From contig JAWOCD010000016.1 of NCBI GenBank assembly GCA_046483985.1, positions 1 through 64,000 on the forward strand: 64,000 bases of DNA, in the 5' to 3' direction. The position numbers and the translations under genes were made by a program. Position 1 is the first letter of the stretch. Every line of letters starts with the position of its first letter. Shown here piece by piece: positions 25,026 to 27,640 of the stretch. The notes under the pieces were generated by a model. The model was not told where the DNA came from. It saw only the letters and a list, made by a program, of their open reading frames with translations, and ran no database searches. The DNA is from Promethearchaeia archaeon (lineage in GTDB: Archaea > Asgardarchaeota > Lokiarchaeia > Sigyniarchaeales > SOKP01).

Positions 25026-25145
25026 ATGTTGTTTTGTCAAACTTGTGGATATATTCTGGAGCAAAATAAAAAACCCGGCAGATATTACTATTGTCCCCGT
25101 TGTAATAAGGTGCGAATGTTTTTTGGCTCTGCAGAATTAAAATGA
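25026..25145 (+). CDS. 39-aa C4 zinc-ribbon microprotein
   Basis: MLFCQTCGYILEQNKKPGRYYYCPRCNKVRMFFGSAELK; two CxxC pairs; too short for the ORF track. Confidence 0.6.
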   Translation: MLFCQTCGYILEQNKKPGRYYYCPRCNKVRMFFGSAELK

Positions 25146-25269
25146 TAGATCAATGAAATATAAAATTATCCCTTTTCGAATGAAGAGCATATAAAATGAT
25201 AGATATGCTCGGACGACCTTGCACGGGAAAAAGGGGATATAATTAAAATGGTACTGTATTATGTATATT

Positions 25270-25776
25270 ATGAGCACTTCGGATCAAATCTCAGGTGTTC
25301 CAATAGGTTCTCAAGCCCCCGCATTTAACATGGAGGATATCGATGGCAACGCGGTGAAATTAACGGATCTCTTAGAACAATACAACGCTGTACTTATTGA
25401 TTTTTTTAGAGGTGCTTGGTGACACGGTTGAGTAAACCATCTCAAACTTCTCTCGGATAACCTCGAATTATTTCGGCGGCATAATGTCAAACTCCTAAGT
25501 ATTTCCAGTGATTCCGCAAGAAATATGAGCCAGCTAAAACAGAAACATCGGTTTGATATCACCTTTGTTTCAGATCCTGGGACAAAAATTGCTAAAAAGT
25601 ATGAAGTTTCCATGTATGAGCAACTCGGTGAATCAAAGTTGAAGGCATTGCAAGCCTTACCCTCAAAATTTTTGATCAATTCAGACGGTAAAATTAAATG
25701 GAAATATTTAGCCGAATCTAAATTGGACAGACCTTCCATCGACCAAATAGAAGGGGCACTCGAAGAATATCTATAA
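25270..25776 (+). CDS. AhpC/TSA (peroxiredoxin-like) selenoprotein with a UxxU motif
   Basis: Continuous frame MSTSDQISGVPIGSQAPAFNMEDIDGNAVKLTDLL..LIDFFRGAW-TGA-HG-TGA-VNHL..SISSDS..FVSDPG..PSKFLINSDGKIKW; TGA at 25420 and 25429 replace the CxxC cysteines; SECIS-like hairpin downstream; alternative ATG at 25261. Confidence 0.88.
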
Positions 25777-25780
25777 ATAA

Positions 25781-25847
25781 GATCCCACGGAATGAGTCAA
25801 ATATAAAATTTTAGATATTTGAGGACAGCCCTTGCAAGGGCGGGATC
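25781..25847 (+). promoter_or_regulatory. Eukaryote-type SECIS-like element in the 3' UTR
   Basis: GATCCC/GGGATC outer helix; ATGA at 25792; TCAAATAT/ATATTTGA stem with an A-rich loop; GA at 25824; side hairpin GCCCTTGCAAGGGC. Confidence 0.78.
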
Positions 25848-26578: not shown

Positions 26579-27640
26579 TTACAAATGATCTATTATTTTG
26601 GTATCTGGAAATTCTAAGATAAAGTCTTCTCCAAATGCTTGGGCGGGTGTGAGCGAACCCTTTATATTCAAATTATCTATTTTTTTAACTGATTTAATTG
26701 CAGATATTGCAGTTAGCCTATAGGCTTCAATAGTACTTAACCATGCTTCCGCTTCTTCACCATTTTCATTTTTTACCCTTGCCCAGATTTGTGATCTCCC
26801 TGATTCTCTTGCTTGTTTATCAGGACCTTCAATATTTTTCTCTACCCATCGTTTTGCAAGTTTTCGCATAAACTTGACTTTAAACAAATTTCTTACAATA
26901 AACCCATACTTTGTCATTGCATTTTCAAACTGTCTGGGGATCGGCATATAGGCGGTAATATTTGGAATTCCGGTAGATCTGTAGGCGGTTGCCACATCCC
27001 CCCACCCAATAGGATATAATTCTCTTGTTTTATCTAAAAATTTGATTGCTCTAGCATCTTTTCCGAATGTTTTTTCTTTTAATTTCCCATTTCTTCTTAC
27101 CACCACGGCAGAAGGAATACTTTCAATCATTGTTTTCATTGTTCCGGGACTGCTCTGACTGAGAGCAAGTATCCCCAGCTCTAAATCTATAGGATTATTT
27201 ATTTTTTCGCTTACATAAACAGATAAGCAATCACTAGGCACAACATCAAAACCTACTCCCGAAATAATTGCAATATCTTTTTCAATTGCTTTTTGATTAC
27301 GTGCAAAATTTTGCTCAAAAACGCTAATTTCTCCGGTAATATCCAAGTAATTCACAGAATGCTGAAGACAAGCCTTCACTAATGGCGCACTTGTATGTTT
27401 AAAAGGGCCAGCAGCATTAAAAAGGATATCATATTCAGGGATGATATTATTAATCTTGTTTTCCTCTTTTAAGTTGAATATTTCATAGTCTAATTCCTTT
27501 TTTTCGGCAAGAACTTTTACTTTTTCGGCATCCCGACCAGAAATTACTGGTTTTAAGTTTTGCCGCATCGCTTCTTCGGTAATTAGTTTACCAGTATAGC
27601 CATAGGCGCCATATAATAACCATTTCATTTTTTTTATCAT
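26579..27640 (-). CDS. Saccharopine dehydrogenase-like oxidoreductase
   Basis: YGAYGYTG, NAAGPF, YLDITGE, GVGFDVVPSD, SPGT, WGDVATAYRSTGIPNI. Confidence 0.9.
   Translation of the reverse strand: MIKKMKWLLYGAYGYTGKLITEEAMRQNLKPVISGRDAEKVKVLAEKKELDYEIFNLKEENKINNIIPEYDILFNAAGPFKHTSAPLVKACLQHSVNYLDITGEISVFEQNFARNQKAIEKDIAIISGVGFDVVPSDCLSVYVSEKINNPIDLELGILALSQSSPGTMKTMIESIPSAVVVRRNGKLKEKTFGKDARAIKFLDKTRELYPIGWGDVATAYRSTGIPNITAYMPIPRQFENAMTKYGFIVRNLFKVKFMRKLAKRWVEKNIEGPDKQARESGRSQIWARVKNENGEEAEAWLSTIEAYRLTAISAIKSVKKIDNLNIKGSLTPAQAFGEDFILEFPDTKIIDHL

Follow-up and report, generated by a model that had tools for sequence, protein, structure and literature searches.

A PrxL.1-type gene with two in-frame TGA codons and a candidate micro-selenoprotein gene beside it in a Lokiarchaeon

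Described relatives and the prxL reading frame

According to Mariotti et al. (2016; PMC4989117), the PrxL.1 proteins of Lokiarchaeota carry Sec in place of both redox-box Cys residues and contain no other Cys. The same authors defined the lokiSECIS, proposed a diselenide and compared PrxL.1 with SelL. The family is so far without an experimentally characterised member (PMC4989117). In a later study by Huang, Xiao and Zhang (2024; PMC11227280), Prx-like selenoproteins were reported in 43% of the Sec-using Asgard archaea, and the accompanying sequence file holds many two-Sec members, two of them with the motif WUHGU. A 2026 review (PMC13188914) gives the family as PF00578, with UxxC or UxxU boxes and one or two Sec.

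The window analysed here is a stretch of 64,000 nt on contig C24 of a Lokiarchaeon assembly (4.06 Mb, 97% complete). It contains a gene, prxL, which has the fold, the UxxU box, the lack of any other Cys, the 3' AUGA/GA lokiSECIS and the proposed diselenide in common with the PrxL.1 type, and which differs from it in a SECIS loop of 10 nt instead of 11. We read its product as a soluble PrxL.1-type selenoprotein in which both UGAs are translated as Sec by means of one SECIS, with a probability of roughly 0.9; a role as a thioredoxin-like diselenide oxidoreductase is, taken by itself, probable but less certain.

The prxL frame occupies 25270–25776 on the plus strand, running from ATG 25270 to a TAA at 25774–25776 (168 codons, for a Prx-like protein of 168 aa). 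It is interrupted only by TGA codon 51 (25420–25422) and TGA codon 54 (25429–25431), which give the redox motif FFRGAW-U-HG-U, and the protein has no Cys along its full length. ORF calling recovers an 83-aa ORF at 25525 alone. The preliminary description had taken this ORF as the tail of a longer frame broken by exactly two TGAs at the redox-box positions and shortened by standard annotation, and all three points are borne out. When read through, the protein matches Pfam AhpC-TSA (PF00578) over residues 12–144 with 91 bits against a cut-off of 26; since the match begins at residue 12, the stretch 5' of the TGAs is part of the domain. A search of a homologous-protein database returned a single full-length match, with Trp at position 51, which fits a truncation of the PrxL family in protein databases.

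Among the matching library proteins (P0003, P0012 and P0001), the top one is a protein of 1430 aa with five Prx-like repeats. Some database entries have Trp at the Sec positions, perhaps from translation of TGA under code 4. A possible archaeal TATA box, as judged from its letters, lies at 25239–25246 on the plus strand, 24–31 nt 5' of the prxL ATG, and would permit a separate transcript with a short leader.

The closest relative found is identical at 78 of 127 residues (61%) and has the same WUHGU motif. Its termini are the same as those of GCA_014729315_U_3 and GCA_014729055_U_2 in the supplement of Huang et al. (2024), in which the exact sequence of the present protein was not found. Hence prxL is a further member of a family known since 2016, with a curated set from 2024, and its UxxU type is not new: this kind of protein was described, its diselenide proposed and its likeness to SelL discussed already in PMC4989117.

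Selenocysteine codons, SECIS and decoding machinery

Homologues of prxL were found in 99 of the 161 genomes of the host's class. At the first redox position, which corresponds to the Thr/Ser position of peroxiredoxins and to the first Cys of the thioredoxin CxxC, TGA is present in all 111 close homologues from this class. The second position, equivalent to the peroxidatic Cys of peroxiredoxins and to the second Cys of CxxC, is TGA in 39 of these homologues and TGT or TGC in the other 72. The nearest relatives without Sec are F/YxRGxW-CxxC proteins (110/116 with a readable motif), Cys being aligned with the two redox positions. The part of the gene 5' of the first TGA is under purifying selection, with a pooled dN/dS of 0.19 for the family, against 0.12 in the part 3' of the TGAs; both values come from the closer within-family pairs, pairwise dS to the query being saturated.

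The prxL SECIS is located at 25781–25847 (plus strand). It consists of AUGA (25792–25795), an 8-bp upper stem, an A-rich 10-nt loop ending in AG, GA (25824–25825), and an outer helix with a side hairpin, with a z-score of -3.2. The AUGA core begins 15 nt past the stop, and the core (25792–25825) lies within a three-way fold. In 92 homologous elements, which were chosen by sequence only, the stem positions are paired in 94.6% of cases, compared with 74% for shuffled partners, and many compensatory changes are seen. The element agrees with the published lokiSECIS (AUGA, a stem of 9 bp, an A-rich loop of 11 nt with a final G, and GA) except for its loop. The length of 10 nt is inside the 8–20 nt model of Huang et al., and it occurs only in the present element, the apical loop being 11–12 nt in 91 of the 92. 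An Rfam search with the element gave no model and only chance matches. Across the genome, a SECIS scan yielded 24 matches, compared with 2–9 in shuffled sequence.

An apical loop of 10 nt is seen in each of the two SECIS elements of the locus, and each is the sole such case in its set (1/92 prxL elements and 1/36 elements of the upstream micro-gene described below). The other well-supported SECIS of the genome have loops of 11–12 nt; the local 10-nt loops are either a real variant or a homopolymer error.

All parts of the Sec machinery that the preliminary description had called for could be located. A tRNA-Sec gene is present at C17:67637–67729 (Rfam 61 bits, gathering threshold 47), followed 46 bp downstream by the SepSecS gene, and an EFSec/SelB-like factor is encoded 4 kb away, with a score of 235.7 bits, just under the curated cut-off of 242. 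The genome further encodes SelD, itself with an in-frame TGA, and a PSTK-like protein that scores 158 bits, under the curated cut-off of 290. The tRNA-Sec/EFSec system would thus read both prxL UGAs as Sec, and the single eukaryote-like SECIS just past the stop would direct both insertions. Frame, codon states and SECIS can be read directly in the DNA; from them we infer Sec insertion.

One may ask whether the TGAs are instead signs of a pseudogene, of an assembly error in which TGT or TGC was misread as TGA, or of a genome-wide reassignment of TGA. The first two are excluded for practical purposes by conservation: the TGA/TGA pair is shared by 39 homologues spread over many genomes, selection is purifying 5' of the TGAs and the SECIS is conserved. 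Reassignment can be rejected as well, because TGA closes 380 long ORFs in this genome and is thus a normal stop. Taken together, these explanations are vanishingly improbable. The claim that both TGAs are Sec codons is borne out by the SECIS, the Sec machinery of the genome and the 111 TGA/TGA or TGA/Cys homologues, and at the sequence level recoding at both codons is almost certain.

Some further observations concern the distribution of these genes. In contigs of relatives that overlap the prxL TGAs, no other letter was seen at either codon; these overlaps extend fewer than 31 letters to one side, are uninformative about expression and were given no weight as evidence. Tandem prxL pairs occur at eight loci, each pair consisting of one UxxC and one UxxU gene, and each gene having a SECIS of its own. 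The contig of prxL itself carries a second, distant Prx-like selenoprotein gene with a UxxC box (84957–85391, minus strand), which belongs to a different subfamily and behind which no SECIS of the strict pattern was found. Another genome of the same order has one UxxU and one UxxC prxL, and at these two genes the strict pattern likewise found no SECIS; the family of genomes to which it belongs may have a variant SECIS.

Predicted fold, proposed chemistry and relation to SELENOL

An AlphaFold model of PrxL was obtained with a pLDDT of 92.9. Its best fold match is Bcp4 (TM 0.84), and it resembles peroxiredoxins more than ResA/TlpA, a point against an enzyme of the TlpA type. The redox box is placed at the start of helix 52–63. 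PrxL shares its overall fold with PrxQ/BCP peroxiredoxins (PDB 3hjp, 2cx3 and 2ywn; TM 0.84, about 24% identity), but differs from them in having other residues in place of the catalytic Pro, Thr/Ser and Arg, and in lacking a resolving Cys. In the alignment with solved peroxiredoxins, the Pro corresponds to Arg47, the Thr/Ser to U51, the peroxidatic Cys to U54 and the catalytic Arg to Pro131; neither the PxxxT/SxxC motif nor the catalytic Arg of PrxQ/BCP is therefore present in PrxL. All 45 sequences compared have Arg47 and Pro131. A Pro at the position of Pro131 is a thioredoxin/TlpA signature.

As PrxL lacks the catalytic triad of peroxiredoxins, a thioredoxin-like oxidoreductase is the likeliest assignment. 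The invariant Sec occupies the place of the thioredoxin nucleophile, and together with Pro131 this favours a disulfide oxidoreductase over a selenium peroxidase. From sequence and model, PrxL thus probably acts as an oxidoreductase of the thioredoxin/TlpA type rather than as a peroxiredoxin. For the predicted PrxQ/BCP-like thioredoxin fold, in which U51-x-x-U54 would open a helix after a core strand, we infer an Se-Se bond and the following activity. U51 would attack a substrate disulfide or a similar oxidised chalcogen bond, U54 would resolve the mixed bond, and the protein would cycle between the diselenol and a diselenide within the same chain. A point against this scheme is that diselenides are not easily reduced. 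UxxC would be the commoner box and UxxU a facultative version of it, the two having interchanged repeatedly.

Selenolates are also reactive toward peroxide, and PrxL might accordingly be read as a selenoprotein peroxidase. Its selenolate would reduce H2O2 or organic peroxides without the peroxiredoxin triad, the second Sec would resolve the selenenic acid to a diselenide, and the invariant Arg47 could replace the lost catalytic Arg. The PrxQ/BCP-type scaffold, the location of U54 at the peroxidatic position and the invariance of Arg47 are in favour of such an enzyme. However, the catalytic Arg has given way to Pro131, the Thr/Ser is lost, and the constant Sec is the first one, at the position of the thioredoxin nucleophile and not at the peroxidatic one. 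A peroxidase is therefore rather unlikely in our judgement. The diselenide oxidoreductase proposed in the preliminary description remains the best reading, given the CxxC-type box, the replaced triad and the lack of another Cys to resolve.

The preliminary description had also linked PrxL to SELENOL (SelL) and to the origin of eukaryotic selenoproteins. As far as SELENOL is covered in PMC4989117 and PMC3316567, which cite Shchedrina (2007), it resembles PrxL in having two Sec placed two residues apart, a Prx-like thioredoxin fold and one SECIS. The presence in PrxL of a UxxU in a thioredoxin-like fold, with one SECIS for two UGAs, and a weak match to the NCBIfam model SelL_rel_redox would be expected if PrxL were the archaeal orthologue or ancestor of SELENOL, with UxxU inherited from Asgard archaea. 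This match (NF040769) reaches 55.4 bits, far under the cut-off of 120, and leaves model positions 100–133 unmatched, while PF13911 gave no match at an E-value of 0.1. Not one protein in 400 genomes of the phylum scores above the cut-off of NF040769, and the best matches in the phylum, at about 80 bits, are a separate family with Cys only.

The phylogenetic data also speak against this descent. PrxL belongs to a separate F/YxRGxW subfamily, and its FFRG-type clade was found in two families of one Lokiarchaeia order only. In a proxy tree, PrxL is a group by itself (SH-aLRT 98) and is separated from the Asgard proteins with the best scores on the SelL model. On another, quick tree, made with the redox-box residues masked and rows shorter than 140 aa left out, UxxU and UxxC interchange 10 times, at least 7 of these changes being forced by well-supported branches; this tree does not give the direction of change. 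With a failed family model, a clade restricted to one order and a second Sec that switches state 7–10 times, orthology to SELENOL is rejected as highly improbable, and the link to the origin of eukaryotic selenoproteins finds no support. Because UxxU is labile inside a one-order clade, it is more likely, judging from the sequences compared, that the UxxU of PrxL converged on the SelL motif than that it gave rise to SelL. The Asgard Cys-only proteins scoring about 80 bits (L176–L187) are better candidates than PrxL for relatives of eukaryotic PRXL2/SelL.

The upstream zinc-ribbon gene and other candidates

Located 121 bp upstream of prxL is an unannotated micro-gene (25026–25148, plus strand). 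It encodes a zinc ribbon in 40 codons (CxxC-x15-CxxC), ends with Lys-TGA-TAG (TGA at 25143–25145) and is a candidate micro-selenoprotein gene, whose product would have Sec at its very C-terminus. A second lokiSECIS follows at 25167–25239 (plus strand), with AUGA at 25180–25183, 8/8 stem pairs, a 10-nt loop, GA at 25212–25213 and a z-score of -3.0, and is assigned to this gene. Neither the micro-gene nor its SECIS was mentioned in the preliminary description.

A search across the class, combined with inspection of the loci, retrieved 41 copies of the micro-gene that end with Lys-TGA-TAA or Lys-TGA-TAG. A strict SECIS accompanies 36 of them, four have near-variants and one has none. The strict elements are located 33–55 nt downstream, and their stems are paired in 94.8% of cases, compared with 65% after shuffling. 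Five more copies end with Lys-TGT(Cys)-stop, all without a SECIS, and 19 paralogous ribbons have neither the terminal TGA nor the SECIS. By comparison, a second stop directly after TGA occurs in 3.2% of the long TGA-ended ORFs of the genome. The start, the four Cys positions and the terminal Lys of the micro-gene are conserved, and one copy has a TGA also at the fourth ribbon Cys. A dN/dS of 0.54 was obtained over about 37 codons, a value that is noisy and biased by the selection of pairs.

Neither Pfam nor NCBIfam gave a family over the cut-off for the micro-gene. It is absent from the seven Asgard selenoprotein families of Huang et al. (2024; PMC11227280), it was not found in the accessible part of the table in the 2026 review (PMC13188914), and a literature search that included PMC4989117 and, in part, these two papers found no description of the family. 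The closest described parallel is formed by the bacterial terminal-Sec proteins SaoC and DUF466 (Lys-Cys-Sec-COOH; bioRxiv 10.1101/2022.07.06.499078), in which a UGA-UAG/UAA double stop likewise alternates with a terminal Cys in homologues. The micro-gene differs from these in being unrelated in sequence and archaeal, in encoding a zinc ribbon of about 37–40 aa and in having a 3' eukaryote-type SECIS.

In the model of Mariotti et al. (2016; PMC4989117), UGA and SECIS have to be some minimum distance apart, and the 37 nt between the UGA of the micro-gene and its SECIS core conflict with this model. This short distance would be explained if the upstream element were a 5' SECIS for the prxL UGAs and the TGA of the small ORF a mere stop. 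The core is 90 nt upstream of the prxL ATG, and a 5' SECIS is known from one archaeal gene. However, the element comes after the TGA of the micro-gene and not after prxL, 29 copies of it have no prxL within 900 nt downstream, and it is missing from 5/5 Cys-ending copies despite a Sec-containing prxL directly downstream. A 5' SECIS serving prxL is rejected on these grounds and is very unlikely.

The locus is thus very probably a two-gene cluster with three Sec and two SECIS, in which the micro-gene represents an apparently unpublished archaeal selenoprotein family with Sec as its last residue. This Sec would, with the same high confidence, be decoded 33–55 nt before the SECIS core, under the minimum spacing assumed for eukaryote-type SECIS. 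As prxL directly follows 13 of the 46 copies, among them every one of the five Cys forms, the micro-protein might serve PrxL as a redox partner or as a substrate, a tentative suggestion from gene order that we regard as somewhat doubtful.

Other selenoprotein candidates were noted in the genome. Three paralogues of about 150–170 aa on contigs C18, C95 and C101 (L188:1056–1511, minus strand; L189:1037–1549, plus strand; L190:1134–1586, plus strand) have adjacent TGAs in the patterns UU, C-UU and U-G-UU. Their sequence stays alike past the TGAs, a lokiSECIS lies downstream of every one, and none matches Pfam; on this sequence pattern they are a candidate for an unreported multi-Sec family. Two further frames on C37 and C97 (L191:621–1583, minus strand; L192:607–1524, plus strand) encode 306–321 aa with a start resembling a signal peptide and a C-terminal membrane segment. 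They have one TGA near residue 10–13, one near 191–193 and a SECIS at the stop, and gave no significant Pfam match. More SECIS-like elements were seen on C8 (L193, SECIS at 27198), on C107 (L194, SECIS at 2040) and on C123 (motif R-S-U-S-G-Y-Y-C), in each case following a frame that contains TGA and resembles no known family in an obvious way.

In conclusion, the flagged prxL call is correct and its gene is cut short in databases, yet it adds one more member to a known family. The UxxU copies of PrxL would offer a putative natural diselenide enzyme for testing the predicted chemistry. The micro-selenoprotein, if true, would take the Asgard selenoproteome past its seven families, and its gene would provide a natural system for asking how a SECIS of the eukaryote type tells Sec from stop at a very short distance in organisms without SBP2.
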